A DNA stretch of 64,000 nucleotides, taken from the sequence record MK573636; one strand, given 5' to 3'. How positions within the stretch are numbered: the stretch's first letter is position 1; each line of letters starts with the position of its first letter. Made by a program: the position numbers and the translations under genes. Under the pieces are notes generated by a model, which was not told where the DNA came from, searched no databases, and worked only from the letters and a program-made list of their open reading frames with translations. Source of the DNA: Escherichia phage vB_EcoM_PHB13. This document shows, piece after piece, positions 1 through 54,417 of this stretch.

Positions 1-84
1 TCCGCGTTGGGAATTTATGCTTCTTCCGTGTGACCGCATTCTGTTTCGTGCTGTTCAATTAGTGAAATGATAGAGGATTATATT

Positions 85-645
85 ATGGTACAGAAAACGT
101 ATAAATTGTATCCGGCTAAGTCTTCAACTGATGCTGTTTTTGAACGAGGTCGTTATTACACTTTCCGTAATGCTGAGTCCGCAGAGGAATTTATCAAACG
201 ATGTCCGCAACATAATAAGTTCTTGTATGACGTGCTTTGTAACGGCTTTAAAGTTCTCACTGTTGATGCGATGGGGCGTGTGTATCTGGTAGAAACTCAT
301 GAGTATGAAGGTGCATCTGTTCTGATTGCTGCAAACGAGCGCAAATACTTTAAACGCATCACTAAAAAGCAGTTTGAAGAAATGAAACCAGTTAAGAAAG
401 AAGAATCTCTGGGAGATCTGATTAACTTGTTTGGTAAAGTTCGCTCGATCTCCTTTGCGATTGAAGATGACATTACTGACAATAAAATCTTTATCAAGAG
501 CGCGGAAGACCTGAAAGAGTTTCTTATTGAAAATAGATTTCGGCTGGAAACCTTTCTTGAAAGTGAAATTATTCGACATGATACTTACGCTAAATTCAGC
601 GCCGATAAAGTAGCTGAACTGAAAGAGATCCAAAAGTCACTTTAA
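85..645 (+). CDS. hypothetical protein, member of repeat-domain paralogous family (one beta-rich domain ending ...ERKYFKRI... plus helical C-terminal tail)
   Basis: ORF track 67..645; start moved to ATG at 85 after SD GAGGATTATATT; shares ERKYFKR motif with 709..1887. Confidence 0.5.
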   Translation: MVQKTYKLYPAKSSTDAVFERGRYYTFRNAESAEEFIKRCPQHNKFLYDVLCNGFKVLTVDAMGRVYLVETHEYEGASVLIAANERKYFKRITKKQFEEMKPVKKEESLGDLINLFGKVRSISFAIEDDITDNKIFIKSAEDLKEFLIENRFRLETFLESEIIRHDTYAKFSADKVAELKEIQKSL

Positions 646-648
646 CAC

Positions 649-683
649 TTGACATGATGAAACGGGAGTAGTAAGATACTCCC
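649..683 (+). promoter_or_regulatory. sigma70-like early promoter (TTGACA / TAAGAT) with inverted repeat GGGAGTA-gtaaga-TACTCCC in spacer/-10 (promoter-early stem-loop type)
   Basis: read directly; identical 27-nt core recurs near 44181 and 44462. Confidence 0.5.
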
Positions 684-708
684 ATTTAAACAACTAGAGG
701 ATTATATT

Positions 709-1887
709 ATGGCTAAATTCTTTGAAGGTCATTACTATGCATTCCGTGAAGGTGGTAAAGATGAGTTTCTAGACTTTTCTCGCTATTCAATTATTCTGAC
801 CGATGCTTCGCGCCGTGGTCATATTCGGGTTGCTGAAATCGTCGAAAAGGGCTTTAAAGTATTAGAAAAAGATGACAACGGTCATGTTATTACTATTGAA
901 GCTGGAGATGTAGTTTATTCCGCTGAGGATATCGTTTATTATTGGGCTACTATGATTATGCACGATGAGCGTAAATACTTTAAACGCATCTCAAAAGAGG
1001 CATACGAAGCGATGAACAAGAAAGAGGATGCAATGCCGACTTACTTTGAAAAAGGTAAATGTTATTCGTTTACACCAGAAGGTTTGCAAGAATTTAAGCG
1101 ATTCTGGGGAGAGCATGATCCAGATCACAAAGAAGCTATGAAACTTGTTGATTTTGTCGAATATGGCTTTTTAGTTGAAGAAGAATTGCACGGATCAGCT
1201 ACCATGATCACCGCGAAAGGTGAAACTGTTAAGGCAGATCGTTTTTGTGATCAATGGGCTTGTGTGTTTGATGGTGGCGAATTTGAATACTTCGCGGAAA
1301 TCACGAAACAACAATTTCATTCTATGCAAGCGGATGGTCAGAGATTTAAAGTAGGTGAACGCTACAAGCCAAATCAGCATAATTTGCCATATTGGTTTAC
1401 CGCTGAAACTGTATCAAGTCATGTTGTTGAAATTGTTCAAAAGCTGGGACAAGGATTTAAGGTGACTAAAGTAGATGATTATGGAAGTGTTGACGCGGTT
1501 GAAATTGATGGTGTAGAATATACACCGAAATCTTTCGGGCTTTGCTGGTATCACTTGATCAGCAATGATGAACGTTATAACTTTGTTGAACTGCCATCTG
1601 AACCGGAAGAAGCACTAGAAGATCATGATCATCTGTCTGAACTGGTTAAACTGTTTGGTGATCTGCCGGATGGTGTAGGCGTGGCGGTAATGGGTGAAGG
1701 TACTGTTATTCGCAACCTGAAAGACCTTAAAAAGTTCTTGATTGACATGCTGCCTAAACTTGATGATAATCTCGATAAAGATATTCAGAATCGCAAAGAA
1801 ATTGTTAAAGATACTGAAAAAGAGATCGAAGAGATTCGAGCAATTCGCCAGAAGGTGAAAGCAGTAAAGAAAAAAGTTAGTGCTTGA
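709..1887 (+). CDS. hypothetical protein, three tandem copies of the family beta-domain plus helical C-terminus
   Basis: ORF track; internal repeats ending DERKYFKRIS / EFEYFAEIT / ERYNFVEL. Confidence 0.6.
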   Translation: MAKFFEGHYYAFREGGKDEFLDFSRYSIILTDASRRGHIRVAEIVEKGFKVLEKDDNGHVITIEAGDVVYSAEDIVYYWATMIMHDERKYFKRISKEAYEAMNKKEDAMPTYFEKGKCYSFTPEGLQEFKRFWGEHDPDHKEAMKLVDFVEYGFLVEEELHGSATMITAKGETVKADRFCDQWACVFDGGEFEYFAEITKQQFHSMQADGQRFKVGERYKPNQHNLPYWFTAETVSSHVVEIVQKLGQGFKVTKVDDYGSVDAVEIDGVEYTPKSFGLCWYHLISNDERYNFVELPSEPEEALEDHDHLSELVKLFGDLPDGVGVAVMGEGTVIRNLKDLKKFLIDMLPKLDDNLDKDIQNRKEIVKDTEKEIEEIRAIRQKVKAVKKKVSA

Positions 1888-1941: not shown

Positions 1942-2436
1942 ATGTGGGTACAAGATGTTTGGTATACTGTAACTAAAGAAAACCTTGACGCATTCAGCGA
2001 CCAATCTTGCGCTAATAGCTCAATTGCTGGTATACTTACTGATGTGTTTGGTGGTGTAGATAAAATTCGTTTTAAAGTTGTTGTTAGTTCGCTGGGTCAG
2101 GTGAAAGATCTTTACACCGAAGATAAAGACCTTGATCTTGAACTTCGTCTTCGTATTGATAATGCAAGTCTAGGTTATTGGTTTGAAGATAACGAATATG
2201 AATACTTCACACCAGCAATTAAAGTTTTTGCGACTAAACTGGAAGCTGTACTGAATCTACGACCAATTAATGTTGACGGCTACATTATCAAAAATATTCA
2301 GGATTGGGAGTTGTATCTAGATCAGGTTATCCGAAATAGTAAGCAGGAAGCCGCTAATAAGAAGCGACAAGAGATTAAACAGCTTAAAGCTGAACTGGAA
2401 GCGGCGGAAAAAGAATTAGCAGAACTGGTAAAATAA
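1942..2436 (+). CDS. hypothetical protein with family-like motif (EYEYFTPAIK) and coiled-coil C-terminus
   Basis: ORF track; SD GAGGATTATATT. Confidence 0.5.
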   Translation: MWVQDVWYTVTKENLDAFSDQSCANSSIAGILTDVFGGVDKIRFKVVVSSLGQVKDLYTEDKDLDLELRLRIDNASLGYWFEDNEYEYFTPAIKVFATKLEAVLNLRPINVDGYIIKNIQDWELYLDQVIRNSKQEAANKKRQEIKQLKAELEAAEKELAELVK

Positions 2437-2480: not shown

Positions 2481-4343
2481 ATGGAAAAACTAATCAAAGA
2501 CATTACAGAGATCGCAACGGGTAAAGAAAACGAAGTAAGCAAAGAGAACGCGAACAAAGACGCGCGAACATTCCCGACACGTCGAGATCTGATTGCTGGT
2601 GCTGTGTCTAAACAGATTGCTAAAACCGTGTTACCTGAGCACATCTATAAAGCGCATGTAGACGGTGACATTCATTATCATGATATGGATTATGCACCCG
2701 CTATGCCGTTTACTAACTGCTGTCTTGTTAATCTCAAAGACATGTTAGAGAATGGTTTTAAATTGGGTAGCGCACAAATCGAAAGTCCGAAATCAATCGG
2801 CGTTGCTTGTGCTGTAACCGCTCAAATTATCGCACAGGTGGCAAGTCATCAATATGGCGGGACCACAATCGCAAACATCGACCAGGTGTTAGCGCCGTAT
2901 GTTAAGAAAACATATCATAAACACCTTGCTGATGCCGAAGCCTACGGAATCAAAGCTGATACTCTCTATGCACAAGAGAAAACAGAAAAAGAAACGTTAG
3001 ACGGATATCAGGCGTTGGAATATGAGATCAACACTTTGTTCTCTACCAACGGTCAAACACCTTTTGTGACTTTAACCTTTGGTATGGGTACTAGCTGGGA
3101 AGAAAAACTGATTCAGAAAGCGATCCTGAAAGTTCGAACTAAAGGTTTAGGTAAAGACGGTATAACTCCGGTGTTTCCTAAGCTGGTGATGTTCTTAGAA
3201 GAAGGATTAAACCTTAAACCGGAAGATCCGAACTACGACATTAAGCAACTTGCATTGGAATGTTCTAGTAAGCGTCTTTACCCTGATTATATCTCTGCGA
3301 AGAATAACCGTAGCATCACTGGATCTAGTGTTCCGGTTAGCCCGATGGGTTGTCGTAGCTTCCTGGGTGTGTGGCATAATGATAAAGGCGAGGAAGTATT
3401 AGACGGACGTAATAACTTAGGTGTTGTGACTCTGAATCTTCCGCGTATTGCCCTTATTGCCGCTCGTCGTGCTGGTAAAGCGTCTGTAATGCGCAGAATT
3501 GAGCTATTCGAACAAGAGCTAGCTAATCGTATGCCTATTTGCTTTGATGCGCTCATGAGTCGCGTAGACGCTTTAAAAGGGGCTAAAGCCAATGTTGCTC
3601 CGGTGCTGTATACAGAAGGTGCATTTTTCCGTATTCATCAAAACGATGAAATTTTGGAAGTGTTGAAAGATGGTCGCGCTAGTATCTCTCTTGGGTATAT
3701 TGGTTTACATGAGGTATTGAGCGTCCTGTTTGGTGTTCATCCGTTTGATTCGGAAGATGCGCAGCGATACGGTAAACATATTCTTAAGATCTTGCGTCAT
3801 TATACTGAAAAATGGAAGGATGAAACCGGACTTGGGTTTAGTCTTTACGGTACGCCAGCCGAGAGCCTTTGCTATCGATTTAATCGACTGGATCGAGAGC
3901 AATTTGGTATTGTTAAGGGTGCTACCGATAAAGACTGGTACACCAACTCATTCCACCTTGACGTAGACCGGAAAGTCACACCATTTGAGAAAATCGACTT
4001 TGAGAAAGATTATCACTGGCTGGCGTCCGGTGGCATGATCTCTTATGTTGAGTTCCCAGACATGAAAAACAACCTGAAAGGTCTTGAAACTGTAGTAGAC
4101 TATGCAATGGATAAATTGCACTACTTCGGTGTTAATACTCCTTCTGATGTATGTCATGTATGCGGATCTAATAAGGAAATGAGAGCGACCGAGTCTGGTT
4201 TTGTTTGCCCTGATTGCGGCAATGACAATCTGGAAAAGATGAATGTTATCCGTCGCGTTAGTGGATATCTTGGATCTGTTGATCTGCGTCCATTCAACCA
4301 CGGGAAACACTCCGAGATGGTAAACCGCGTTAAGCACATGTAA
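2481..4343 (+). CDS. nrdD: anaerobic ribonucleoside-triphosphate reductase
   Basis: 620 aa; C-terminal Zn ribbon CHVCG...CPDCG and glycyl-radical motif RRVSGY; T4 NrdD-like. Confidence 0.9.
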   Translation: MEKLIKDITEIATGKENEVSKENANKDARTFPTRRDLIAGAVSKQIAKTVLPEHIYKAHVDGDIHYHDMDYAPAMPFTNCCLVNLKDMLENGFKLGSAQIESPKSIGVACAVTAQIIAQVASHQYGGTTIANIDQVLAPYVKKTYHKHLADAEAYGIKADTLYAQEKTEKETLDGYQALEYEINTLFSTNGQTPFVTLTFGMGTSWEEKLIQKAILKVRTKGLGKDGITPVFPKLVMFLEEGLNLKPEDPNYDIKQLALECSSKRLYPDYISAKNNRSITGSSVPVSPMGCRSFLGVWHNDKGEEVLDGRNNLGVVTLNLPRIALIAARRAGKASVMRRIELFEQELANRMPICFDALMSRVDALKGAKANVAPVLYTEGAFFRIHQNDEILEVLKDGRASISLGYIGLHEVLSVLFGVHPFDSEDAQRYGKHILKILRHYTEKWKDETGLGFSLYGTPAESLCYRFNRLDREQFGIVKGATDKDWYTNSFHLDVDRKVTPFEKIDFEKDYHWLASGGMISYVEFPDMKNNLKGLETVVDYAMDKLHYFGVNTPSDVCHVCGSNKEMRATESGFVCPDCGNDNLEKMNVIRRVSGYLGSVDLRPFNHGKHSEMVNRVKHM

Positions 4344-4348
4344 TTTTC

Positions 4349-4381
4349 AGCCGATCCGAAAGGGTCGGCTTTTTCGTTTTT
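4349..4381 (+). terminator. intrinsic terminator AGCCGATCC-gaaa-GGGTCGGCT plus T-run
   Basis: read directly. Confidence 0.55.
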
Positions 4382-4386
4382 GGGTG

Positions 4387-4414
4387 TTGACAACCTGATT
4401 AGCTAATGTATAAT
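4387..4414 (+). promoter_or_regulatory. sigma70-like promoter TTGACA-16/17bp-TATAAT
   Basis: read directly. Confidence 0.45.
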
Positions 4415-4443
4415 GCTCACATCGAAAACAACGAGAGGACAAC

Positions 4444-4986
4444 ATGATGATGATGTTTTGTGTACTGAGCAAAGAAGTTAAACTTCGTAAACTGGAAATT
4501 GGCGATGGTGTTGTTGTTAAAATGCACGCTAGCACATTGGCTAGTTTTAATTTAAAGGAAAGTTTTTTTATTAGAGGAACGGTGGTTAATGTCTGCTGGA
4601 GTCAAGGCGAAGGAATCCGTAGCTTTTGCGTAATTGACGATGATAATAACCTGTATGTGATTCGCTATCATAATAATTCTGTATTGGTCTATACCGACAA
4701 TTCACGAGAATTATATACTCTTGAATTTGTTAAGCGTACTGATTGCGACCGATTTGTTCGTGCTTATGAAGAAGATGGCTGTTTTGCGACTGAAACAGAA
4801 ACAAATGAATATGTTCCTATGGAAGTAGGAGCAGAAATTAAACACAAGATCACGGATCGTATTTTTAAGGTTGTGGCGGTTGCTCATACTCAATTTGTAG
4901 CGCAAGCGCCGGATGAAGAATTTATTATCTACAATATTGGTAATGCAAGTTCTCATTTTCATAATGTACTATATCGCGACCTTTGA
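4444..4986 (+). CDS. hypothetical protein
   Basis: ORF track, 180 aa, no recognised motif. Confidence 0.45.
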   Translation: MMMMFCVLSKEVKLRKLEIGDGVVVKMHASTLASFNLKESFFIRGTVVNVCWSQGEGIRSFCVIDDDNNLYVIRYHNNSVLVYTDNSRELYTLEFVKRTDCDRFVRAYEEDGCFATETETNEYVPMEVGAEIKHKITDRIFKVVAVAHTQFVAQAPDEEFIIYNIGNASSHFHNVLYRDL

Positions 4987-6252: not shown

Positions 6253-6262
6253 GGTGATTATT

Positions 6263-6790
6263 ATGGAATGGGAAGTTGGTAAAACTTACAAGATTGAATG
6301 CGAAGCGTCGAAAGCCGAACTGACTAAATTTTCGTCGTCTATTAACAGATGTATTGTTGACTTGTTGGCTGGTCGCCCGTTTAGGGTAGAAGACCTTGAC
6401 GATGATGGTGATGTTAGAGAAATTACTATTATTGGTAGTAATTTCGACTCTATGACGTTAAAAGAATCCCCTATTGGCTGTTCCGGTGTGTGGTTTTGGT
6501 CGGGTGAGCGTCGTTTCTTTACCGAAGTTACTATTGAACCTAAGATTCCAGATTCGGAAGAAAAAGAAGAAGACCTAACTTTAGAACGCCTGGGTCTGCT
6601 TATGGAAGCCTACGACATTCAGTTGATCGATAAGATGGGGTTACATAATAGCATTGCCAAAATTACTACCCTAGAAGGTATTAAGAGCGTGCTTGATGGT
6701 ATGCCTAGCCGGATCGGTGCTATCCGAGAATACAAGCAAACGCGCGACCGTATGATCCAATTAGAATCACGTATCAAAAATGAGAGATGA
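6263..6790 (+). CDS. hypothetical protein, repeat-domain family (MEWEVGKTY... / ERRFFTEV)
   Basis: ORF track 6254..6790, start moved to ATG. Confidence 0.55.
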   Translation: MEWEVGKTYKIECEASKAELTKFSSSINRCIVDLLAGRPFRVEDLDDDGDVREITIIGSNFDSMTLKESPIGCSGVWFWSGERRFFTEVTIEPKIPDSEEKEEDLTLERLGLLMEAYDIQLIDKMGLHNSIAKITTLEGIKSVLDGMPSRIGAIREYKQTRDRMIQLESRIKNER

Positions 6791-6794
6791 TATT

Positions 6795-7259
6795 ATGAAA
6801 TGGGAAGCTGGTAAGACCTATGCGTGGAAAGATGTAAAAGATGCAAACCAATTTTTTAAATGGTATGATGTTGATTATTTGAAATATCTGAGATTACCGT
6901 TTAAAGTTGCGTCGGTTGATGCGAAAAAAGGATACGTGCGGTCTGTTTATCTTCATGATGGAACTTATATGAGTTCAACCGATGTAGGTCTATCTTGTTG
7001 GTTTCTGGATCATGACCGTAGCAGATTTGAAGAAATTATTATTCCAGAAGAATCTAAATTAATTGATCTTCTCAAGTTGGCGATGGATAATTATAAAATC
7101 CGCTTTGAATGCAAATCACATGCGGCTATCGGTGCTAACGCCTTGCGTCATATCTCCAGTTTTGAAGAGTTGAAAGATTTTCTTGACAAAATGCCGGAAA
7201 GGGTGCAAGCTATACAGGAAGCAGAGAAAGCATTAAACGAACTTGATAAAATCGGTTAA
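6795..7259 (+). CDS. hypothetical protein, repeat-domain family (MKWEAGKTYAWKD...)
   Basis: ORF track 6780..7259, start moved to ATG after SD. Confidence 0.55.
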   Translation: MKWEAGKTYAWKDVKDANQFFKWYDVDYLKYLRLPFKVASVDAKKGYVRSVYLHDGTYMSSTDVGLSCWFLDHDRSRFEEIIIPEESKLIDLLKLAMDNYKIRFECKSHAAIGANALRHISSFEELKDFLDKMPERVQAIQEAEKALNELDKIG

Positions 7260-7271
7260 GGGGAATATATT

Positions 7272-8096
7272 ATGAAATGGGAAATTGGTAAAACTTACAC
7301 CTGGAAAGACGAAAACGCTAAAACTGAGTTTATTACTAACGGAGAAGGTGTTCTTTCTCCACTTAACAGCGATATTAGTGCAGCTATTGGTGACAAGCCA
7401 TTTACCATCATCGAGATCGAGGGTAACGGTTGGATTGATGCAATAGAGCTAGACGGTGTTTATCATACGGCGAAAACTGCTACAGGAAAAGACATTTGGA
7501 AGTCAACATATTTGTTTAGTCCATTTGATAGAAAATTCTTTCGTGAAGTTGAAGAAGTTCCCCAGAAATGGGAAGTTGGTAAAACTTATACTTGGAAAGA
7601 TATTAAGGCTATGACCGACTTCTGTCATTATGCCGAAAACGTATCTAACCTTAATTATGTTATTGCACGAGCAATAAATTATAGACCTTTTACTGTTAAA
7701 AATGTTCGTCCATGTGGGCAAATTGATGTAATTGAAATTGATGGTAAAGACCATACTCTAATGAGCGCAACCGAAGATAGAGACCATAAAGGAACTAGCT
7801 GGTTTATTGATTCTGATAGAAAATTCTTTCGTGAAGTAGAAGAATTGGAAGTTATAACCACTGATTCTAAGATCGTTGGACAGTTGAAACGTCTGTTTAG
7901 TAGTCGTTACGGCCTGACAATGGTTAAATTTGGCGAAGCAAATGAAGGTAAAACCTTTGAACGTTTCGATGATTTCATTTCGGCACTTGACAAGATGGAT
8001 GAAATCATGCAAGATCGCCAGAAGATTAAAGACCTTCAAGAAGACATTAAACGTCGTGAAGTTGAATTTTTGATTGGTAAAGAGCGAGGATGGTAA
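7272..8096 (+). CDS. hypothetical protein, repeat-domain family with two tandem domain copies (WEIGKTYTWKD ... DRKFFREVEE, twice)
   Basis: ORF track; about 23-nt identical DNA repeat near 7528 and 7812. Confidence 0.6.
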   Translation: MKWEIGKTYTWKDENAKTEFITNGEGVLSPLNSDISAAIGDKPFTIIEIEGNGWIDAIELDGVYHTAKTATGKDIWKSTYLFSPFDRKFFREVEEVPQKWEVGKTYTWKDIKAMTDFCHYAENVSNLNYVIARAINYRPFTVKNVRPCGQIDVIEIDGKDHTLMSATEDRDHKGTSWFIDSDRKFFREVEELEVITTDSKIVGQLKRLFSSRYGLTMVKFGEANEGKTFERFDDFISALDKMDEIMQDRQKIKDLQEDIKRREVEFLIGKERGW

Positions 8097-8097
8097 T

Positions 8098-8583
8098 ATG
8101 TTTGTTGCTGGCGTGACCTATCAGTGGAAAGATAAGAAAACGAGAGAAGATTTTGCAAACTTTAGCGTTGCAAATGATGCAATAGCAGAGTTTATCGGCG
8201 ACCGTCCATTTAAAGTTATTGCATTTGATCACCACCATGCATCGGATGTGAATTATGTTTCTGTGATTGAAATTGATGGCACGGTATACACCTGCTGCAA
8301 TGTTGATGATGTACGGGAATACGCGCACAACTGGTTTTTGCAATCAGAAGAACGTCATTTTAAAGTGGTATCGGCAGAGCTATCATCCGAAGCAATGTTG
8401 GAACAATTTTTCAACAACTACGAAGTTTCTGTACGTCGCTATGGCGAAGAAGAAGTGTTTAAAATCGATGATTACAATCAGTTTAAACGAGTATTCGCCA
8501 CTAAGTTACAGCGTGATTTTGAACGCGAGAAGCGCATCAAGGAACTGGAAGAAGAATTGGAAAGATTAAAGGCTGAGAAATGA
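8098..8583 (+). CDS. hypothetical protein, repeat-domain family (GVTYQWKDKK ... ERHFKVV), coiled-coil C-terminus
   Basis: ORF track 8074..8583, start moved to ATG after SD GAGGATGG. Confidence 0.55.
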   Translation: MFVAGVTYQWKDKKTREDFANFSVANDAIAEFIGDRPFKVIAFDHHHASDVNYVSVIEIDGTVYTCCNVDDVREYAHNWFLQSEERHFKVVSAELSSEAMLEQFFNNYEVSVRRYGEEEVFKIDDYNQFKRVFATKLQRDFEREKRIKELEEELERLKAEK

Positions 8584-23916: not shown

Positions 23917-24234
23917 ATGGATAAGAAACCAACAAGTTTAGAAGAAGCACACAGCTTGATTCAAGAAGCAATGAAGACAGTTATCCAGGAACTGATAATT
24001 GTTGATGAAGAGGGAGAACATCATATTGTCTATATTCATAATGTTGAATACGATCCAGACACTAAAGGTATTGTGGTCGACTACTCCACGCCGTCAGATC
24101 GTGATGTGGTATATCCACACGTCATTAAGGCGTTAACCGCGCAGATCAAAGAAGCAGAAGAAAAGTTGAAAAAAGAAACTTTCTGGTATAAACTCAAGAC
24201 CTTTGTTATGCGTGTAGTTGGGGGCTATGTATGA
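23917..24234 (+). CDS. hypothetical protein (occupies the T4 gene 40 position)
   Basis: ORF track; position only. Confidence 0.35.
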   Translation: MDKKPTSLEEAHSLIQEAMKTVIQELIIVDEEGEHHIVYIHNVEYDPDTKGIVVDYSTPSDRDVVYPHVIKALTAQIKEAEEKLKKETFWYKLKTFVMRVVGGYV

Positions 24235-25643
24235 TTAAAACTATCTTTTCACAGTTGATTTACAATGGCGCATTCTTTACGAATGTATGGCCTCACCTTA
24301 AAGCGGACTACTTCACCGAAGACGAAGAAAAACTGATTTATAAGCTGATTAAAAAGCACGTAGACGAATATTCCAATATTCCTACGCCAACAGCATTACA
24401 GATTGCTTTAGACAAGGAGAGAGGCAATCAGACAACATATGAAGGGGCTAAAACTCTTCTTGATTCGCTTGAGAATACACCGGAAGACCTTGATTGGTTA
24501 ATGAAGGAAACCGAAAAATTTATTCGTGACCGTGCCATGTATAATGCAATGTCACGGGCGCTAGAGATTCAGGCGAACGCACAACTACCAAAAGAGAAAC
24601 AGAATAAGAAATTGCCGAGTGAGGGTGCTATTCCTGAGATCATGCAGGAAGCACTATCCATTACGTTTGATTCTGATGTAGGTCATGACTGGTTTAATGA
24701 CTTTGAAAAACGATTCTTGCTATATCAGACTAAGGCGAATAAGATCCCGTTTAAGCTGCCGATGTTGAATAAAATCACGAAAGGAGGTGCGGAAAGAAAA
24801 ACGCTAAATGTGTTGCTTGCTGGTGTAAACGTTGGTAAATCGCTTGGCTTGTGTTCTCTTGCTGCGGATTATATGGAATGTGGTTATGATGTATTGTATA
24901 TATCAATGGAGATGGCAGAGCATGTCGTAGCAAAACGTATCGACGCAAACTTGCTTGACATTACATTAGATGAATTGGATAATGGTAATGTTTCTTTTGC
25001 GGAATATTCCGCACGCATGAAGCGTGTTAAGAATAAGAAGATCGGAGATCGTCCGGTTGGAAAATTGATGATCAAGCAGTATCCGACTGGTGGCGCAAAC
25101 TCCAATCACTTTGAGGCGTTAATGAATGAATTGCGACTCAAGAAACAGTTTAAACCTGATGTTGTGATTGTTGACTATCTGGGGATTTGCGCATCGTCTC
25201 GCTTGCGTGTATACTCTGAAAATAGTTACACACTAGTTAAGGCGATTGCGGAAGAACTGCGAGGATTTTTTGTTAAGTGGGATGTTGTTGGTTGGACTGC
25301 GGCACAGACTACCCGCGCGGGTTGGGATGCTTCCGACCTTAACATGAGTGATACCGCTGAATCAGCAGGTCTTCCGGCTACTGCCGACTTTATGTTGGGT
25401 GTTATCGAAACCGAAGACCTGGCTAAAATGGGCGTCCAACTCATGAAGCAGATCAAGTCTCGTTACGGTGATAAGAACTATTATTCACGGTTTAACGTTG
25501 GTGTGAAGAAAGGCAATCAGCGTTGGTATGAAGTACCAAACCAGATCGCAGATCAGGAGAATACACAAGTTAAACCACAAAGCGCACAGCAAGCCGAGAA
25601 ACGCGAAAAACTCGACGAGCTAGCAAATACCATGACTTTCTAA
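24231..25643 (+). CDS. 41: replicative DNA helicase gp41 (DnaB-like)
   Basis: Walker A AGVNVGKS, RecA-like core; synteny. Confidence 0.85.
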   Translation: MIKTIFSQLIYNGAFFTNVWPHLKADYFTEDEEKLIYKLIKKHVDEYSNIPTPTALQIALDKERGNQTTYEGAKTLLDSLENTPEDLDWLMKETEKFIRDRAMYNAMSRALEIQANAQLPKEKQNKKLPSEGAIPEIMQEALSITFDSDVGHDWFNDFEKRFLLYQTKANKIPFKLPMLNKITKGGAERKTLNVLLAGVNVGKSLGLCSLAADYMECGYDVLYISMEMAEHVVAKRIDANLLDITLDELDNGNVSFAEYSARMKRVKNKKIGDRPVGKLMIKQYPTGGANSNHFEALMNELRLKKQFKPDVVIVDYLGICASSRLRVYSENSYTLVKAIAEELRGFFVKWDVVGWTAAQTTRAGWDASDLNMSDTAESAGLPATADFMLGVIETEDLAKMGVQLMKQIKSRYGDKNYYSRFNVGVKKGNQRWYEVPNQIADQENTQVKPQSAQQAEKREKLDELANTMTF

Positions 25644-25693: not shown

Positions 25694-26329
25694 ATGATCG
25701 CTAATGCTTTACCGCCAAAATGGATCGTAAGTCGCTTTTATACTCTCAAGGAAGGTAACGCACCTGATGGTCGTCCGATCCGAGATCTGTTTCTGGAGAT
25801 GACTACCGCCGAAGCACAATTTTATAATGATCTGACAGACGATAAGCCGTTTCTTGTAAATTCTGTGGATCTTGATGGTAATGTTACGTCAATTATCGCA
25901 CATGGTGGGGAAGTGAAAAATATTACTTCTCTGCGTGAACACGGTTGGGAAATTGCTTGTGTATTTCCTGCGGATGTACGCGGATTCTTTGATGAGGTAT
26001 CTGATATTAAAGTAAATGCACTAGAACCATATGACGAGATCCCACCACTGAAAGAAGAAAAAGAGTTGACACCGGAAGATGTAGATAGTACACTACACCC
26101 AGACCTATTTAAGAAGATTAGCGGTTTATGGACTGTTACCCTGCATCCAACCGCATTAGGTCTAGAATTGGGTATGCCAACTTATTCTGATATTGATAAT
26201 TGGACTAAGCATATTGATAAAGATGTTGAAAAACAGCGAAATAATGCTAAAATGCAACTTAAAGAGAAACGAAAAGATCTTGAACGACAACTGAAAGAAA
26301 CCAAACATTTGCTTTCTACGTTCGCTTGA
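25694..26329 (+). CDS. hypothetical protein, likely distant member of the repeat-domain family (VDLDGNV...ADVRGFFDEV)
   Basis: ORF track; motif similarity to the 6263..8583 cluster. Confidence 0.45.
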   Translation: MIANALPPKWIVSRFYTLKEGNAPDGRPIRDLFLEMTTAEAQFYNDLTDDKPFLVNSVDLDGNVTSIIAHGGEVKNITSLREHGWEIACVFPADVRGFFDEVSDIKVNALEPYDEIPPLKEEKELTPEDVDSTLHPDLFKKISGLWTVTLHPTALGLELGMPTYSDIDNWTKHIDKDVEKQRNNAKMQLKEKRKDLERQLKETKHLLSTFA

Positions 26330-47588: not shown

Positions 47589-48245
47589 TTATCTAATCCT
47601 TCCGAGGATTCTGGCAGATTGATTGCAAAGAGTATCTAAATTCTCAATGTCAATATCCGGTTTATTCTTCCATGAAATGGCGATACTACCAGAATAGACA
47701 TTATCGAGATTGAATATAGGACAAGAATACATGAAACCTATATCGATATTCTCTAATTTCTTTTCTCTTGATGGAATATACTGGAAATCTTTATCGGTAA
47801 AATATGATTTACCTAAAAGATGCCTACGATATTCTTCACTCGTTTTATTGATAGGGAATCCGCCTAAATTTTTTTCATCGATTGTGTGTGGTAGCTTTCC
47901 TTCATATGCCACCAAATCAACAAAATAGTTTAGGTTTTTCGGACGAAAACTAAAAACAGCAGAAAAATCGGCATCAGCCGACACATGAACTATCTGTAAC
48001 TGCTCCTGTGCTGCATTATCAAAATTGCGGTCTTTCTCTACCTGGAGAATGTGAGCATAAGTCTCATAACGAGTCTCTTTATAAAGCGCAAATAACTCGT
48101 TTTTACTATAAACGACAAATGCCAATATGGACAACACGACGGCAGCAAAAACACGAAGTACGAGCAACTCCGTGCTTTTAGTTGTGAAAATAGCGCGCAG
48201 GACATTTGAGATAGCAAAGTCTTTCCCTTTTTCAGAAACTTGCAT
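47589..48245 (-). CDS. t: holin
   Basis: 218 aa; strong similarity to T4 holin T (LEQLQIVHVSADADFSAVFSFRPKNLNYFVDLVAYEGKLP), one N-terminal TM. Confidence 0.85.
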   Translation of the reverse strand: MQVSEKGKDFAISNVLRAIFTTKSTELLVLRVFAAVVLSILAFVVYSKNELFALYKETRYETYAHILQVEKDRNFDNAAQEQLQIVHVSADADFSAVFSFRPKNLNYFVDLVAYEGKLPHTIDEKNLGGFPINKTSEEYRRHLLGKSYFTDKDFQYIPSREKKLENIDIGFMYSCPIFNLDNVYSGSIAISWKNKPDIDIENLDTLCNQSARILGRIR

Positions 48246-48278
48246 ATAATGCCCTAAGATAACTATGACAGTGTACTC

Positions 48279-48518
48279 TTATTTAGGTAGTTGACTATCA
48301 CTAGGTTTATCTTGCTCGTTACTATCTTCTGACTGATCTTTATTAAACTCCTTATAAAGTTCTTCCACAAAACGATCATCAATTGGCGTATTGGTATAAG
48401 CCGCAAGACGACGAGCGCAATAGAAGAAAATTTTAGTGAGCATCTTTTCACTAATTAACTTTGACAATAATTTCATTCCGAAATTAGACAAAGCACCAAT
48501 GACGATATTATAGACCAT
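48279..48518 (-). CDS. hypothetical protein between gene 37 and holin (the T4 gp38 position; not gp38-like)
   Basis: ORF track; SD AAGGAGA. Confidence 0.4.
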   Translation of the reverse strand: MVYNIVIGALSNFGMKLLSKLISEKMLTKIFFYCARRLAAYTNTPIDDRFVEELYKEFNKDQSEDSNEQDKPSDSQLPK

Positions 48519-48558
48519 AGCCGTTTCTCCTTAGTAGTTCCCTTCCCTGGGATTTTCC

Positions 48559-51477
48559 TTAATTCTTTTTAAGTTCCGCTAGTTCAGCTTTAACGGCTTT
48601 CAATTCTTCGCTCATTTCCTGAAACGCCTTAATTAAAAGAGCGTTGACAGCAGAGTTAGAAATTGTTAAGATCTCTTCTGGTTTATCTGGATCGCCGATC
48701 TTAGAAGTTGTTACTGCTTCCGGCAATTCTTTTTCAAGATCCTGAGCAATAATACCAACTTCATGAGCGATAACAGTGCGGTCCGTCAAAGACTTAACCT
48801 TATCGTAGGTGTACACAGTCAAGCGATTAACTTTATCGGTGGCATTCTCCTTATACTCTTCCTTGTTGATTTTCAGACGAGCATCAGAACGAATATACAC
48901 ATCGTTAAACGAACCGTTACGTCCTGCCGACATGTCACCGGTGGCGCTAAAGTCAAAGTTGGCGTCATTAACGTTTAGGCGTGCTATAGCATTACCTATA
49001 GTGCCGCCAGGAACGTGTACACCCATTGCCGCAATATGATATTTTCCCCAATGAGTCGCTTTCCAGATGTTATGAGCGGAATCGGTTGATTGAGGACAGT
49101 CTACGAGGATTCCGGCAGAACGATCACGCCAGCTAGCCCAGCTACCACCAGCAACACTACCACGAATCAAACCTTTATCAGATCCGCCGACGCTACCAGA
49201 TTCCAACTGGATCATTTTATCTGCAAATTTCCACACCTGGGCTTGTTTCTGACCACGGAAGCGAATAACACCAGCATCATCGCAGTACATCAAGCCTAAC
49301 TCTAAACCGTTCGGATCTCTAAACCAGATGTGCTTATTGCCAGTACGACGAAAATCAATATCAGAACCGCCCAAAATAATATTACCGCCAGTGGTAATTG
49401 CTTGCGGCCTAAGAGTACCGTTGATGGCAAACTCGATTAATTCAGTACCCGGACCGCCAGGTCGGTGGGTATACCAATGCCACCCGCTTTCATCACCGCA
49501 TTCAAATATTTGTTTACGACTATCGTTACCCCATACACGTAGAGTAAACGTAGATGCGGCGGTCCCTTTACCCCATTTAATTTGACCAGCAGATTCCAAA
49601 TCACCGAAGAATTTAGTTTTAATCGCACCAGTTGATAAAGTACGTTCAGTGGTGAAGTGTGCACCCATGCTATCGTCAAGCTGTAAGATGTTATCACGCG
49701 CGTTATTGCTATCGCCCCAATGGTTAAACCGGAAGTAGTCGCGGGAATTTAATCGCCCAGCGTCGAAAGTCAAATGCCCTTTCTTAATGTAAACGTCATT
49801 ACTAAAGCGAGCGGCACGAGAAGCACGTTCTAACGTTAATGCTTCTTCGTTACCATCACCGCCTAATTGAACGTTACCGGAAGTTAAATCATAAATGAAT
49901 GGACGATAGCTATTCCATCCACCAAAACGATCATTTTCGGCAGTAGAAAGAAGATAAACTTTAGTGCCGTCATTACGCCAGAATGCACCGTAATTACCAA
50001 AGATCATACGGTATGCATTAGAGTTAGCGGAATAATATTGTCCGTTGGTATATACAATTTTTGTTTTTCCTACCGACAGCGTAACCTGACCAGTATCATC
50101 CAGTCTTAATGAGTTAGTACCTTCCGTTAATTCATTTACTAACTGTACGGTGTTAGTAGTAGCGTCACCATACCCTAGATAACCTTGACGGCGGTTAGCA
50201 CCGGAACGATAATCATAAAATTCTAGGTAATTACTTTGTCCGTCTCTACGCTCCATTCTGATAGCGTTATTTCCCTTAACGAAAAGACGATTTACAGTAA
50301 CCCCATTAAAATCAATTTTTAGTTGGTCTGACTGATCAGTAACGCCAGTAGCTAAACGATATACGCCACCCTCGACAACCTCATGCCATATTGTTTCTGC
50401 GGATTTGCTACGAAACTTACGAAGATATTTTTTATTGCTATCAGTCGAGTTATTCAAGCTGATAATATCATACGTTCCTTGACCGTTATTATCAAACATC
50501 AACGTTCCGGCTTTGTTTTCGGTGTTGAACATGGTAATAACACGAGCATCAAATTTAGTTCCGGTTTCTGGTTTAGTCGCCGAAAATTCAGGAACATCGT
50601 GAACAGTCAATGCAACATCAACAGTTTTTCCAAACTCTACAATAACGTTATCAGTGAAGCGACCATAGTTAACATAAATGTCATAGTTATCACCGGAAGT
50701 ATTAATTGCAAATACTTCATGGACGTTCAAAGAATTTCGACGATATGCAGCAATACTAACGCCTTTAGGGTTATTATTACCACTACGAATCACAATTTCA
50801 AGGAAATCCACCTGATCGTAGGAGTTAACATTAAATCCGTTCCCACCATAGATTCGCAGAAACGCCATCCGACCACTCTGCGGGATCATTGCGGATGCAA
50901 TTTTAAAATAACCACGGGTTGCTCCACCAGAAGGAGTAGACATTTTAACGTTCTTAACAAACATACGGTCAATTTCTTGTTTGCTATAGACGTTCAATTC
51001 TGAGGGAGTAGGTTTATCACCTTCGTGATACATGCGAAAGCTGAATCTCTTGTTACCATCCTTATCAAAGCCATAGGTTTTAACCTGAGAGGAACTAGAA
51101 CCATATTGAAATTCGAACCCGCGACCGTGTGCTTTACCGCTGGGATGAGGAATGTTCAGAATCAAGTTAGACCAATCATCAGCATTATTCGGTCGAAACG
51201 CACCAAAATAATTAAGATCTCGCGCGGTTTGGTCTTCAAAATAATTAGCGGTTTTACTTAAAATATAATTATTTCCTTTAACCTTACCCGCCATTGTAAC
51301 ATCGCTGTCATAAACCGGAGGACAACTTAAATTGATAATAGCACCGGAATCATTTTTAGTAAGAAGATATTGATCCGCAAGGTTGATTGCCAATTCCCCC
51401 GGATTCATCGTACTAGCATCCGGTCGACGACCTTTAGTGCTAGTGCGTTTAAATTGGATTCTGCTTAAATCTGCCAT
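48559..51477 (-). CDS. 37: long tail fibre distal subunit gp37 with C-terminal intramolecular chaperone-like domain
   Basis: N-terminus MADLSRIQFKRTSTKGRRPDAS...GELAINLAD resembles T4 gp37; C-terminal coiled-coil tail ...AVKAELAELKKN. Confidence 0.8.
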   Translation of the reverse strand: MADLSRIQFKRTSTKGRRPDASTMNPGELAINLADQYLLTKNDSGAIINLSCPPVYDSDVTMAGKVKGNNYILSKTANYFEDQTARDLNYFGAFRPNNADDWSNLILNIPHPSGKAHGRGFEFQYGSSSSQVKTYGFDKDGNKRFSFRMYHEGDKPTPSELNVYSKQEIDRMFVKNVKMSTPSGGATRGYFKIASAMIPQSGRMAFLRIYGGNGFNVNSYDQVDFLEIVIRSGNNNPKGVSIAAYRRNSLNVHEVFAINTSGDNYDIYVNYGRFTDNVIVEFGKTVDVALTVHDVPEFSATKPETGTKFDARVITMFNTENKAGTLMFDNNGQGTYDIISLNNSTDSNKKYLRKFRSKSAETIWHEVVEGGVYRLATGVTDQSDQLKIDFNGVTVNRLFVKGNNAIRMERRDGQSNYLEFYDYRSGANRRQGYLGYGDATTNTVQLVNELTEGTNSLRLDDTGQVTLSVGKTKIVYTNGQYYSANSNAYRMIFGNYGAFWRNDGTKVYLLSTAENDRFGGWNSYRPFIYDLTSGNVQLGGDGNEEALTLERASRAARFSNDVYIKKGHLTFDAGRLNSRDYFRFNHWGDSNNARDNILQLDDSMGAHFTTERTLSTGAIKTKFFGDLESAGQIKWGKGTAASTFTLRVWGNDSRKQIFECGDESGWHWYTHRPGGPGTELIEFAINGTLRPQAITTGGNIILGGSDIDFRRTGNKHIWFRDPNGLELGLMYCDDAGVIRFRGQKQAQVWKFADKMIQLESGSVGGSDKGLIRGSVAGGSWASWRDRSAGILVDCPQSTDSAHNIWKATHWGKYHIAAMGVHVPGGTIGNAIARLNVNDANFDFSATGDMSAGRNGSFNDVYIRSDARLKINKEEYKENATDKVNRLTVYTYDKVKSLTDRTVIAHEVGIIAQDLEKELPEAVTTSKIGDPDKPEEILTISNSAVNALLIKAFQEMSEELKAVKAELAELKKN

Positions 51478-51522
51478 TTTATAAAATCCTTAAACGGTTA
51501 TTAGAATAATATTATTTAGAAA

Positions 51523-51543
51523 AGCGGGGAGATAATCCCCGCT
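51523..51543 (-). terminator. terminator hairpin AGCGGGGA-ttatc-TCCCCGCT downstream of gene 36 (minus-strand sense)
   Basis: read directly. Confidence 0.4.
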
Positions 51544-51547
51544 AAAA

Positions 51548-53038
51548 TTAGAAAGTACCAAAATCAATCACCGCATTAAGTGGAACTGCGCCAACATCAG
51601 CCGGAGTAGGTTTATTGCCTTCATGATAAAGCTGATAGCGGTCCACGGTTTGAGTATTGTTTCTAGAACGGAAAAACACGACCTTTGAGTCGTGGGTGAT
51701 CCCCAGCTTTTCGGTCCCTTTAATATCACTAATACGGTGAATCATAGCAGTACCATCAGCACCGCTTAACGCCGCATAACAGTTATCCCCGTTATAGTTA
51801 GTTTTAGCTGTTCTAACACCGTTTGCAGCCGGAACAGTTAACGGTCCTGTCATGGTATCGCCAGTTACGTTAACATAGCGAATATCGGCTAATTTACGGT
51901 GATCTACATAGTTCCATGCAGTCCATGATTCATTAGAACACGAACGCCAGCACATCGGATGATCAATAGATTCAGGATAATACACCTGAACAATTCGACG
52001 AGTACCGACCGCATCTTCTGGGCGATATACCATCAAAACGCCGTTATAATAACTATCAGACGGTTTATTAGTACCCGACCCAGCATTTTCCACACGATAG
52101 ATACCGCGATTAATAAGAGTGTTCCAATCAACGTTTCCAATGATGGTTGGATTTGCTACCATTGATTTTCTCTCAAAGTAGCTCAAACGAACCAATTCAT
52201 TAGGACCAGCAGGATCGTTTGTCGCCAACATTCTAGGCGCTTGCAAGTTACCTTCCATAATATCACCAGCACGTTTAACCTGTGCATCATTGGTGACATT
52301 GCCTAGCCCAACATCGGCTTTAGTTGGTTTATTGTTGGTGTGATAAAAACGACCTTCTCTGCCATTAACAAAAATGGTAGGCTCATCTTTACTTCGGAAT
52401 ACCAACGTATCAAGAACGTTACCATAATAGATCTTAGTCGCATCAAAATTAATTAAATCACGTTCCCTTGCAATTAATTTCGAATCAACCGATAGTTTAA
52501 CAGTGACAGTGTTTAAATTATATGTTCCTGTGAGAGTATCACCGCGACGAGACACCAAATCTAAATCATTATTCGTTGGTTTATTAACAGGGCTATAGAC
52601 GCGTTGACCTGTGTCTTTAATGGTTGTCCCTTCGATAGTCCCTTTAGACTTAAATTCGCCCGTTGTGGTGTCAATATACGCCATAATAACGCCATCACGG
52701 GCATTAACAAAGCCGATTGACTTCCATGAATGCAAACCCCAGCTTACGCCGTCAAAATTAGCGGCATCACTCTGGCCTTTAAAGATACCATTCTTTTTGG
52801 TTTCTCCAGCCGATGCGCTACCTACGCTTAAACCTTCCTCGAAATGAACTTGCTTTTGAAATGTGCCACCTTCGGATGCACTAACAGCATCAAAATCGGT
52901 AGCCGAAGGTCTATCAAAAGCGGTATAGATTTTATGACCTTTGTAGAAAAGCTGGTCCCCCGCTGGCTGGATCGTCAAGTTTCCTTGCGTCCAAATGGGA
53001 GATCCGCCTACAGTAGATCCATATTTCAAATCTGCCAT
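51548..53038 (-). CDS. 36: long tail fibre subunit gp36
   Basis: N-terminus MADLKYGSTVGGSPIWTQGN resembles T4 gp36; candidate late promoter TATAAATA upstream. Confidence 0.6.
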   Translation of the reverse strand: MADLKYGSTVGGSPIWTQGNLTIQPAGDQLFYKGHKIYTAFDRPSATDFDAVSASEGGTFQKQVHFEEGLSVGSASAGETKKNGIFKGQSDAANFDGVSWGLHSWKSIGFVNARDGVIMAYIDTTTGEFKSKGTIEGTTIKDTGQRVYSPVNKPTNNDLDLVSRRGDTLTGTYNLNTVTVKLSVDSKLIARERDLINFDATKIYYGNVLDTLVFRSKDEPTIFVNGREGRFYHTNNKPTKADVGLGNVTNDAQVKRAGDIMEGNLQAPRMLATNDPAGPNELVRLSYFERKSMVANPTIIGNVDWNTLINRGIYRVENAGSGTNKPSDSYYNGVLMVYRPEDAVGTRRIVQVYYPESIDHPMCWRSCSNESWTAWNYVDHRKLADIRYVNVTGDTMTGPLTVPAANGVRTAKTNYNGDNCYAALSGADGTAMIHRISDIKGTEKLGITHDSKVVFFRSRNNTQTVDRYQLYHEGNKPTPADVGAVPLNAVIDFGTF

Positions 53039-53207
53039 AAAGTAACCTCAAAAATTAGTTATAGTTCCGAGTATTTATAGAATGTTAACAAAATATCGCT
53101 TCGCGACGTGCCGTAGGCACTGACTAATTTTTAACCGAAACAAACTTTTCTATATTCTAAAGATCTTTCTTCGTTTTGGTTACATTTTAACCAACTGTAT
53201 AAAAATA

Positions 53208-53230
53208 AAGCCGACCACATGGATCGGCTT
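53208..53230 (-). terminator. terminator hairpin downstream of gene 35 (inverted copy of the 43282 hairpin)
   Basis: read directly. Confidence 0.4.
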
Positions 53231-53240
53231 GTAAAAAATG

Positions 53241-54380
53241 TTAATCAACATCGAACTCTTTAAAGTTGTTGGATGTGATGTGTTTATTATCTCTGGGTAG
53301 TTTAAGAAGACTCATTACAGGGTTAGTAAAATCACCGTTATCCTGAATATGAGTTGTTCTAACACCATTAACACCAAATGAAGTAGGACCAGTAGTTTTG
53401 ACGACTCCACTGATCGGCGTTATTAGTATGTTTCTAATTTTAACAATACCTTCATTGGAGTTGGTTGGATATCTGATACAACCAGTTACTACACTATCGA
53501 CACCTTCCGGTACTGTATAGACTGCTTCAAACTTTTCCCATTGGTCTTTTTTGCTGGCATTGTATCTAACACCAGTTTTATATTGTCCATCGGTGAAGTA
53601 GTTGTGATAGAAACGCGCTGTTACGTTGGCTGCGGCTGCGGCACTATCACGGAACAATTCAAAGGATATTGATAGTTTGTCACCTGCCTTTATGTTAAAA
53701 TCTTCAAGTGGTGCGCTGATCTCATCGTGAGGCCATTGTATTAGCTCGAAATGTTCGGCATCTTCGCTAACATACTCAACCGGATAATCTAAAAATCGTT
53801 GTGGTGTTCCTGTTATAGCAAGATCATCTATAGTATCATAGACTTTCTCAATTTGTATAGATGAATCTTGTCCTTCCCCGTGAGTTGCTTGCATCCCTTC
53901 GCACACAATTTTACCCATTTTAGTAGAATAAATTGCTGCATATGATACACGAGGCATTTGCTGTAACAAAATGTGATTCGGGAATGATACCGATCCCATC
54001 TTAGAAAATACAACATCACTTATCGGATCTGCAAACAATTCTCCATGAGTTGCCATCGCAATGATATAATCACCTTTCAGCAAAGAAAGATAATCACGCA
54101 TTGCCAAAACAGCACCGCGACCATAGAATACCTTTTCTTCGTGTAGTTGTCCAGTTGGAGTAAGAACTTTAAAATTTAGGCCATTTTCATAGCCAGTGCC
54201 AACGATATCCACTCCATTAAATCTAATCCTTGCTGGTTTGGTAGAATCCGCATTAGATCCGCGCACTTCCAGCTTATACATCACAGAGTTATTTTCTGAA
54301 ATGCTGGTAAATGTCGCAGAGTCTTCGTCGAAATGCGCAAACCTAATTCCAGTGTTGCGTAATTCTATATCTTGTGTCAT
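53241..54380 (-). CDS. 35: long tail fibre hinge subunit gp35
   Basis: size and position between 34 and 36. Confidence 0.6.
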   Translation of the reverse strand: MTQDIELRNTGIRFAHFDEDSATFTSISENNSVMYKLEVRGSNADSTKPARIRFNGVDIVGTGYENGLNFKVLTPTGQLHEEKVFYGRGAVLAMRDYLSLLKGDYIIAMATHGELFADPISDVVFSKMGSVSFPNHILLQQMPRVSYAAIYSTKMGKIVCEGMQATHGEGQDSSIQIEKVYDTIDDLAITGTPQRFLDYPVEYVSEDAEHFELIQWPHDEISAPLEDFNIKAGDKLSISFELFRDSAAAAANVTARFYHNYFTDGQYKTGVRYNASKKDQWEKFEAVYTVPEGVDSVVTGCIRYPTNSNEGIVKIRNILITPISGVVKTTGPTSFGVNGVRTTHIQDNGDFTNPVMSLLKLPRDNKHITSNNFKEFDVD

Positions 54381-54391
54381 AATAACCCCAT

Positions 54392-54414
54392 AGGGGGGCT
54401 TTCGCCCCCCCCTT
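54392..54414 (-). other. G/C-rich intercistronic hairpin (GGGGGGG-cgaaag-CCCCCC) between gene 34 stop and gene 35 start
   Basis: read directly. Confidence 0.35.
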
Positions 54415-54417
54415 TAA

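Follow-up and report, generated by a model that had tools for sequence, protein, structure and literature searches.

Tandem GoF-type modules in two genes of Escherichia phage vB_EcoM_PHB13 and the turnover of modules at short boundary repeats

The genome of Escherichia phage vB_EcoM_PHB13 (sequence record MK573636) was analyzed over a stretch of 64,000 nucleotides, referred to here as the window. Two genes near its start, at positions 709–1887 and 7272–8096 of the plus strand, encode three and two tandem copies, respectively, of a module of ~95 residues which, judged by its sequence and predicted fold, belongs to the family of the T4 protein GoF. We favor an interpretation, to which we assign a probability of roughly 0.7, in which both genes are old tandem arrays of GoF-type modules, modules of the second gene have been lost or swapped at short repeats at the module boundaries, and the number of modules serves a valency-type function. 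The same copy numbers had been proposed in an earlier note on this DNA (the original prediction), which took them as a sign of recent duplication or recombination and suggested that the copy number may be unstable.

Both genes belong to a set of seven paralogs in the first 9 kb of the window, each composed of one to three modules followed by a helical tail of ~70–90 residues; the other five have a one-module architecture. The open reading frames (ORFs) are designated below by the position at which they begin (o67, o709, o1942, o6254, o6780, o7272, and o8074).

Module architecture and family membership

The seven proteins were cut into modules and tails, which were compared by Smith–Waterman alignment against 300 shuffles (z-scores below) and searched with hidden Markov models (HMMs) of the module. 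Structures were predicted with AlphaFold2 (AF2). The three-module gene is organized as follows:

709–1887 (+): three-module gene o709, 392 residues, orthologue of RB49 'frd.2' (RB49p058), 98% identical; three module-HMM domain matches
709–1038 (+): module 1, residues 1–110; z=17 against the o67 module (its closest relative), z=11 against module 2, z=15 against module 3
1039–1338 (+): module 2, residues 111–210, the most divergent copy; z=11 against module 1, z=8 against the o67 module
1339–1608 (+): module 3, residues 211–300; z=15 against module 1, z~8 against both o7272 modules
1609–1887 (+): C-terminal tail; helix, β-hairpin, and long helix (residues 337–391) in the AF2 model; homologous to the paralog tails

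Self-alignment, proposed at the outset as a check, yields internal repeats far above chance, and the predicted copy numbers of three and two are borne out. The two modules of o7272 align with z=42, and in leave-one-gene-out HMM searches they are recovered at E=3.5e-14 (module 1) and E=1.2e-15 (module 2). For o709, the corresponding values are E=1.5e-10 for module 1 and E=3e-7 for module 3, with module 2 matching weakly at E=0.09. The pair of modules 2 and 3 of o709 is not significant by Smith–Waterman alone (300 shuffles), so that these two are linked transitively, through module 1. PHROG profiles independently match o709 in three places and o7272 in two, and the AF2 secondary structure repeats the order β-α-α-β-β-β-(α)-β three times in the former and twice in the latter. 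The o709 model is of low confidence (predicted local distance difference test, pLDDT, 63) and was used for this periodicity alone. Module 2 is the weakest link of the array, backed by the likeness it shows to module 1 and the o67 module as well as by the predicted secondary structure pattern.

Tandem Repeats Finder reported no array matching the modules, because these are too diverged. Its sole find is a 21-nt tandem repeat (1.9 copies, 78% match) at 901–940, inside module 1 of o709, encoding ...AGDVVYSAEDIVYY.... A separate observation concerns the 24-nt stretch GAGCGYAAATACTTTAAACGCATC, which encodes ERKYFKRI and occurs at 337–360 and 967–990, 630 nt apart and with one base differing. The first copy is the module end of ORF 67–645 and the second the end of module 1 of ORF 709–1887. 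It is a homogenized module boundary of the same kind as those described below for 7272–8096, and a recombination event between the copies would join the two genes into one.

Scanned with Pfam and NCBIfam, all seven paralogs yielded sub-threshold noise only, and no Pfam family passed the threshold at E≤1. An HMM built from the ten modules of the window matches residues 4–91 of T4 GoF with E=6.6e-11 (38 bits), T4 Frd.2 with E=3e-3, and MotB.1 marginally with E=0.13. PHROGs 8944, 13003, and 2980, labelled goF, match as well, and the RefSeq name for RB49p058 is 'goF mRNA metabolism modulator'. In the AF2 model of o7272 (mean pLDDT 77, modules ~85–90), each module has five strands, in the order β1-α-α-β2-β3-β4-(α)-β5, and the second leads into a helix, then a hairpin, then a helix of 40 residues. 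The module is thus predicted to be a five-stranded SH3/LSm-like β-barrel with two inserted helices. The top Foldseek match in the PDB is the Mib repeat of Mind bomb (E=3.6e-4), which is a tandem SH3-like pair, followed by FeoA and SloR/ScaR. Among the BFVD models, Foldseek matches uncharacterized proteins of many Straboviridae, several of the many matches being of two-module length.

GoF and its relatives Frd.2 and MotB.1 are T4 early proteins with an N-terminal five-stranded 'LSm-like' or SH3-like barrel (Kim et al. 2025, PMC12152347), and the nearest solved structural neighbors of GoF are FeoA and the FeoA-like domains of SloR/IdeR (PMC12152347). Both the sequence matches and the predicted fold therefore place the modules of the window in this family. 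The family was described as having one N-terminal module, a flexible linker, and a variable C-terminal domain (PMC12152347), whereas o709 and o7272 have three and two modules ahead of the tail; they are an architectural variant, and homology to the GoF family is not thereby excluded.

Two other assignments were tried and rejected. Sm/LSm/Hfq proteins proper have one N-terminal helix in place of the two helices predicted here between β1 and β2, no Pfam LSM or Hfq match was obtained at E≤1, and Hfq is outside the top 50 Foldseek matches. Proteins of that class form ring-shaped hexamers or heptamers; for GoF, Kim et al. obtained no confident multimer models (PMC12152347). The FeoA family (PF04023) gave no Pfam match and shares a likeness of fold only, the best case being 3e19_C (target-normalized template modelling score 0.57, 12% identity).

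A word-indexed search for proteins matching the module alignment went no further than Krischvirus relatives. The wider family came to light when 1.84 billion representatives were searched exhaustively with a profile, which returned 84 clusters at E≤1e-3. These comprise 62 one-module clusters, 14 two-module clusters, three three-module clusters (including the o709 type), and five long proteins with short partial matches that we regard as spurious. Many two-module proteins from other T4-like genera have a GoF-like C-terminal domain in place of the Krischvirus tail. Tandem arrays in the family have therefore arisen repeatedly.

Boundary repeats and module turnover

The two-module gene and the repeats at its module boundaries are listed here together with the relatives in which each part is retained, where L003 is a syntenic metagenome contig, P0055 a metagenomic protein, and L011 a chimeric locus described below:

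7272–8096 (+): two-module gene o7272, 274 residues, 825 nt, orthologue of RB49p049 (annotated as hypothetical protein); two module-HMM domain matches
7272–7565 (+): module 1 (m1), residues 1–98; z=42 against module 2; pLDDT ~90; sole module left in E26, ELT4, and L003
7566–7853 (+): module 2 (m2), residues 99–194; sole module left in AV108 and P0055; substituted in FL04, JK32, and UPWr_E1
7854–8096 (+): tail, 95–99% identical in RB49, FL04, E26, AV108, ELT4, and L003 and in the L011 chimera
7275–7310 (+): 5' boundary repeat, copy 1, encoding KWEIGKTYTWKD; 32/36 nt identical to 7566–7601; also present at the starts at 6263 and 6795
7566–7601 (+): 5' boundary repeat, copy 2; 32/36 nt identical to 7275–7310
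7527–7549 (+): 3' boundary repeat, copy 1, the exact 23-mer GATAGAAAATTCTTTCGTGAAGT, encoding DRKFFREV; deletion junction of E26, ELT4, and L003
7815–7837 (+): 3' boundary repeat, copy 2, the same exact 23-mer, 288 nt from copy 1

The 3' repeat had been described as a near-identical repeat of about 23 nt near 7528 and 7812; it is exact, and no match of this kind arose in any of 100 shuffled versions of the window. The 5' repeat at the module starts goes beyond what had been noticed before. DRKFFREV is the most conserved motif of the module, and yet the probability that all eight of its codons would be identical, given the codon usage of the window, is ~0.0016. Among identical residues of the two modules, 15 of 19 codons are the same at the module ends, compared to 11 of 28 in the interior (Fisher p=0.009), the latter being, in our judgement, roughly the level expected from codon bias alone. 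Protein conservation and codon bias hence do not account for the exact 23-mer.

These patterns also bear on the age of the arrays. The o7272 modules share 51% of their amino acids and 57% of their nucleotides; their starts (~36 nt) and ends (~30 nt) are nearly identical in DNA, while interior synonymous sites are near-random. The duplication is therefore old, its ends having been kept or made identical at the DNA level. The o709 modules are mutually 15–25% identical and have no DNA repeat in common, and the triplication is ancient. Both arrays are thus old in-frame tandem duplications.

The number of modules was compared across isolates, as had been suggested, with markedly different outcomes for the two genes. 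In GenBank Krischvirus, all 58 records span at least 97% of the 392-residue o709 protein, and in a collection of 5.8 billion proteins its relatives form eight 90%-identity clusters, all of 391–392 residues and down to 81% identity. Among phages, a tblastn search with o709 gave no matches beyond Krischvirus. The number of modules in this gene is the same in every relative found, and the expectations of recombination and unstable copy number fail for it.

For o7272, by contrast, they hold. Megablast of the same 58 records identified 52 with the full 825-nt m1–m2 gene. FL04, JK32, and UPWr_E1 have an 834-nt gene in which the sole non-aligning part is the second module, a different m2. E26, ELT4, and AV108 have single-module genes of 534–537 nt, two of them m1-only and one m2-only. 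In DNA alignments, exactly 288 nt are gone from E26, ELT4, and contig L003, with the junction within the 23-nt repeat. In AV108, 291 nt are missing, and three m1-type single-nucleotide polymorphisms occur in the first 35 nt of the gene before the sequence continues as m2, which places its junction in the 5' boundary repeat. P0055 is m2-only, as is AV108, and the more distant relatives P0062–P0067 are m1-only proteins in which the linker matches the m1–m2' gene type. Taken together, the variants imply at least three independent module losses and one module replacement, all in frame and all with a tail that is 95–99% identical. An apparent two-piece match in FL04 (H88) was rejected as a copy-number change; it is the upstream paralog.

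Module turnover is not confined to o7272. Eight loci (the window, RB49, FL04, E26, AV108, ELT4, and two metagenome contigs) were compared, and at the four genes between nrdG and nrdH, module alleles that are 48–75% identical sit on tails that are 92–100% identical. Module identity is 48% for o6254 against FL04, 48–49% for o6780 against E26 and FL04, and 58–59% for o8074 against RB49, AV108, and L003. In a 40-nt identity profile, the divergent blocks map onto the module bodies, between phages that are otherwise 95–97% identical, and they are bounded by the tails and by the conserved start motif ATGAAATGGGAAGTTGGTAAAACTTA, which is common to four module starts (repeat families D1 and D2). The modules therefore behave as exchangeable cassettes. 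No module type was found at another gene position at ≥80% identity among the eight loci, so that alleles stay at their own positions rather than being shuffled between paralogs. The nrdC–nrdD cluster (o67, o709, and o1942) is far more uniform, with 85–99% identity.

Two further loci in the nrdG–nrdH cluster deserve mention. In L011 (Logan contig SRR11185258_147272), a single 154-residue chimeric gene at 4001–4465 stands in place of three genes between nrdG and the o8074 orthologue, combining a 6254-type N-terminus, the end of an m2'-type module, and a 7272-type tail, joined at DDD/GATGATGAT microhomology. It is either a real deletion or an assembly chimera and is suggestive only. The orthologue of ORF 8074–8583 is split in ELT4 (L009:1739–2235) into 297 + 189 nt and in L011 (4467–4938) into 64 + 105 residues, which suggests that in some genomes this paralog is frameshifted or decaying.

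Function and origin of the arrays

Homologous recombination between the boundary repeats, either within one genome or between co-infecting genomes, would yield the o7272 variants, and the single-module forms would mostly be deletion derivatives arising during replication or in mixed infection. This direction is argued from the predominance of the tandem form, its presence in the most divergent relatives, and the position of E26, which is classified in species gec3s although phage GEC-3S itself carries the tandem gene. As to function, acidity (pI 4.3–5.6, net charge −2 to −10) is common to nine of the ten modules, the exception being the o67 module with a pI of 7.7. We favor the view that the modules are binding units for a host or phage protein rather than for generic RNA, that the long C-terminal helix would oligomerize, and that module number would set valency or target range, with rapid allele turnover reflecting selection by variable host factors. 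Protein-binding modules on an oligomerizing tail are the weakest part of our account.

The most serious alternative, although a clearly less probable one, is that the modules are LSm/Hfq-like RNA-binding domains and that tandem copies would act as a multivalent chaperone of RNA or stabilizer of mRNA, as proposed for T4 GoF. It draws on the homology to the GoF N-terminal domain, on the stabilization of gene 41 mRNA by the mutant GoF(D25Y) (PMC12152347), and on an eighth family member located directly downstream of gene 41 in the window. However, wild-type GoF and MotB.1 are without effect on RNA, stabilization being confined to the gain-of-function mutant (PMC12152347), and LSM and Hfq are missing from the Pfam matches, and Hfq from the top Foldseek matches, as described above. 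The acidity of the modules does not favor generic RNA binding, and the sharp allelic dimorphism between near-identical phages would be unusual for a housekeeping RNA chaperone. It is this combination of acidity, inert wild-type GoF, and module turnover between near-identical phages that leads us to prefer protein binding over an LSm-type RNA chaperone.

Somewhat less plausible is a fusion origin for o7272, in which m1-only genes of the E26 type and m2-only genes of the AV108 type were the ancestral alleles and were joined by unequal crossover in a mixed infection. Both single forms do occur and have their start and tail in common, and the difference of ~50% between m1 and m2 is like that between allelic modules at neighboring loci. 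Nevertheless, 55 of 58 isolates have the tandem form, as do the relatives that diverge most (63–88% identity), and the nesting of E26 within a species whose phage GEC-3S has the tandem gene runs the other way. Moreover, GTTCCCCAG, the linker between the modules, has no match either upstream of the start codon or at the beginning of the tail, and m2 is closer to m1 than to any other module. We consider fusion unlikely.

The recent tandem duplication of the original prediction, with copy number intrinsically unstable in both genes, fares worse still. The exact 23-nt repeat and the natural single-module variants of 7272–8096 speak for it, but the 57% nucleotide identity and nearly randomized interior synonymous sites of o7272, and the low identity of the o709 modules without DNA repeats, largely refute its recency. 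Intrinsic instability is at odds with the three modules of o709 in 58 isolates and eight metagenomic clusters, and with the same two modules of o7272 in 52 of 58 isolates. We regard this explanation as improbable, and equally so the notion that the 23-nt repeat is a by-product of the conserved DRKFFREV motif and codon bias with no role in recombination. The 23-mer does encode the most conserved motif of the module, yet this notion is contradicted by the codon probabilities given above, by the excess of identical codons at module ends over interiors, and by three independent sequences with deletion junctions inside the 23-mer. Lastly, collapse or expansion of repeats during assembly, for which nothing speaks except that repeats are present, can practically be dismissed: repeats of 23–36 nt between modules that are 57% identical cannot confuse reads, and the same structures recur in dozens of independent assemblies, including 52 independent genomes with the same 825-nt gene and 58 of 58 with the same three-module gene.

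Several points weigh against old arrays with boundary-mediated turnover and a valency-type function. The direction of change was argued from frequency and within-species nesting rather than from a rooted phylogeny, and the allele survey consists of eight loci read in detail and coverage tables for 58 records. Selection acting on the nucleotide sequence as such could account for part of the homogenization of the ends. Module 2 of o709 is weak in its leave-one-out profile, and the o709 model is poor (values above). Finally, wild-type T4 GoF and MotB.1 have no known function (PMC12152347).

A broader proposal, which we put forward tentatively, is that the nrdG–nrdH cluster is a domain-level diversity locus, in which start motifs and tails would act as homology arms for in-frame swap, duplication, or deletion of modules between co-infecting phages. 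Such a locus would adjust specificity and valency in early proteins whose partners are variable host factors, such as defense or takeover targets, and would be the intragenic counterpart of the gene shuffling mediated by promoter-early stem-loops (PeSLs). That modules, and not tails, turn over in one cluster suggests that the module is the part that determines specificity and evolves fast. The family of GoF, with Frd.2 and MotB.1, was recognized only in 2025, and its barrel can evidently be arrayed two or three times per tail. E26, AV108, and FL04 are natural variants which, compared to RB49, could be used for testing module binding, and the locus shows cleanly how domains can be gained and lost in frame at short coding repeats within a hyperplastic region of a phage. 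The family itself has been published and tandem domain duplication is ordinary; what is new here is the tandem architecture and the domain-level polymorphism, which are modest additions.

Genomic setting and relation to known systems

The window comes from a Krischvirus, its first 9 kb being 95–97% identical to RB49, MIZ4, Phi1, JSE, and 50-odd others (for MIZ4 and RB49, 97% across the 9 kb with the gene order unchanged). The order is that of RB49-like T4-type coliphages: ...49, small ORFs, nrdD, nrdG, four small ORFs, nrdH, 55.... The remaining paralogs and the promoter ahead of o709 are as follows:

67–645 (+): single-module paralog RB49p059; PHROG and module-HMM match
649–700 (+): PeSL-like early promoter upstream of o709; TTGACA, 17-nt spacer, TAAGAT; stem GGGAGTA...TACTCCC
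1942–2436 (+): single-module paralog RB49p057; module-HMM match; perfect PeSL-like promoter ahead, at 1884–1918
6254–6790 (+): single-module paralog RB49p051; module-HMM match; likely start ATG 6263
6780–7259 (+): single-module paralog RB49p050; module-HMM match; likely start ATG 6795
8074–8583 (+): single-module paralog RB49p048; module-HMM match; likely start ATG 8098

An eighth family member (25,694–26,329, plus strand, 211 residues) matches the module HMM with E=3e-7, although it was outside the training set. It lies directly downstream of a gene 41-like replicative helicase (24,231–25,643), a curious position because the sole known phenotype of T4 GoF(D25Y) concerns gene 41 mRNA. A 90-residue, module-only member without a tail, RB49p060 (L001:1298–1570), is located just upstream of the window start, and positions 1–63 of the window are its 3' end; members of this type were found with the module HMM in RB49 and FL04. 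The family in RB49-like phages has thus expanded to at least eight genes. Elsewhere in the window, the GC skew is negative for ~10 kb at ~48,000–58,000 and then positive again, in keeping with an oppositely oriented block of genes.

Upstream of both o709 and o1942 lies TTGACA-N16/17-TA(A/T)(G/A)AT with a GGGAGTA...TACTCCC stem-loop that embraces the −10 element, and the stop codon of ORF 709–1887 overlaps the TTGACA at 1884. Judged by these promoter sequences, the genes would be early, with transcription from sigma-70-type PeSL promoters. A strong terminator hairpin (4349–4370) comes after nrdD and precedes a perfect TTGACA-16-TATAAT promoter (4387–4414). A promoter scan found no PeSLs between the genes of 6254–8583, where the four genes abut or overlap.

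Compared to known systems, the closest likeness is to T4 GoF and its relatives Frd.2 and MotB.1, with which the genes studied here share a homologous N-terminal barrel of ~90 residues with FeoA and SloR as structural neighbors, a variable C-terminal domain behind a flexible linker, and a location in hyperplastic regions of T4-type phages, where an early-gene setting is predicted for them. Unlike the T4 members, which have one module each, they include two or three modules in tandem and form a group of seven to eight paralogs around the nrd genes, and their tail (a helix, a hairpin, and a long helix) differs from the C-terminal domain of GoF. A term search of Kim et al. 2025 found no mention of tandem modules, duplication, copy-number variation, or RB49-like phages (PMC12152347). 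The Mib repeat of Mind bomb 1 (4tse), FeoA, and SloR/ScaR/IdeR show a likeness of fold only, at 9–13% identity; they are eukaryotic or bacterial and have unrelated functions.

The other relevant system is that of the PeSLs, which mediate gene-level shuffling in RB49, phi1, and JSE (Arbiol et al. 2010, PMC2839356; Comeau et al. 2014, PMC4122927). It operates in the same phage group and likewise uses short conserved flanks as recombination points for indels and replacements. However, o7272 is not a PeSL-bounded cassette, its breakpoints being in the coding repeats at 7275–7310/7566–7601 and 7527–7549/7815–7837, and PeSL-like motifs do flank o709, which is nonetheless invariant. In the four genes of 6254–8583, the points of exchange (the motifs at module starts and ends, and the tail) fall within coding sequence, and the unit exchanged is an in-frame protein domain rather than a gene between two PeSLs.

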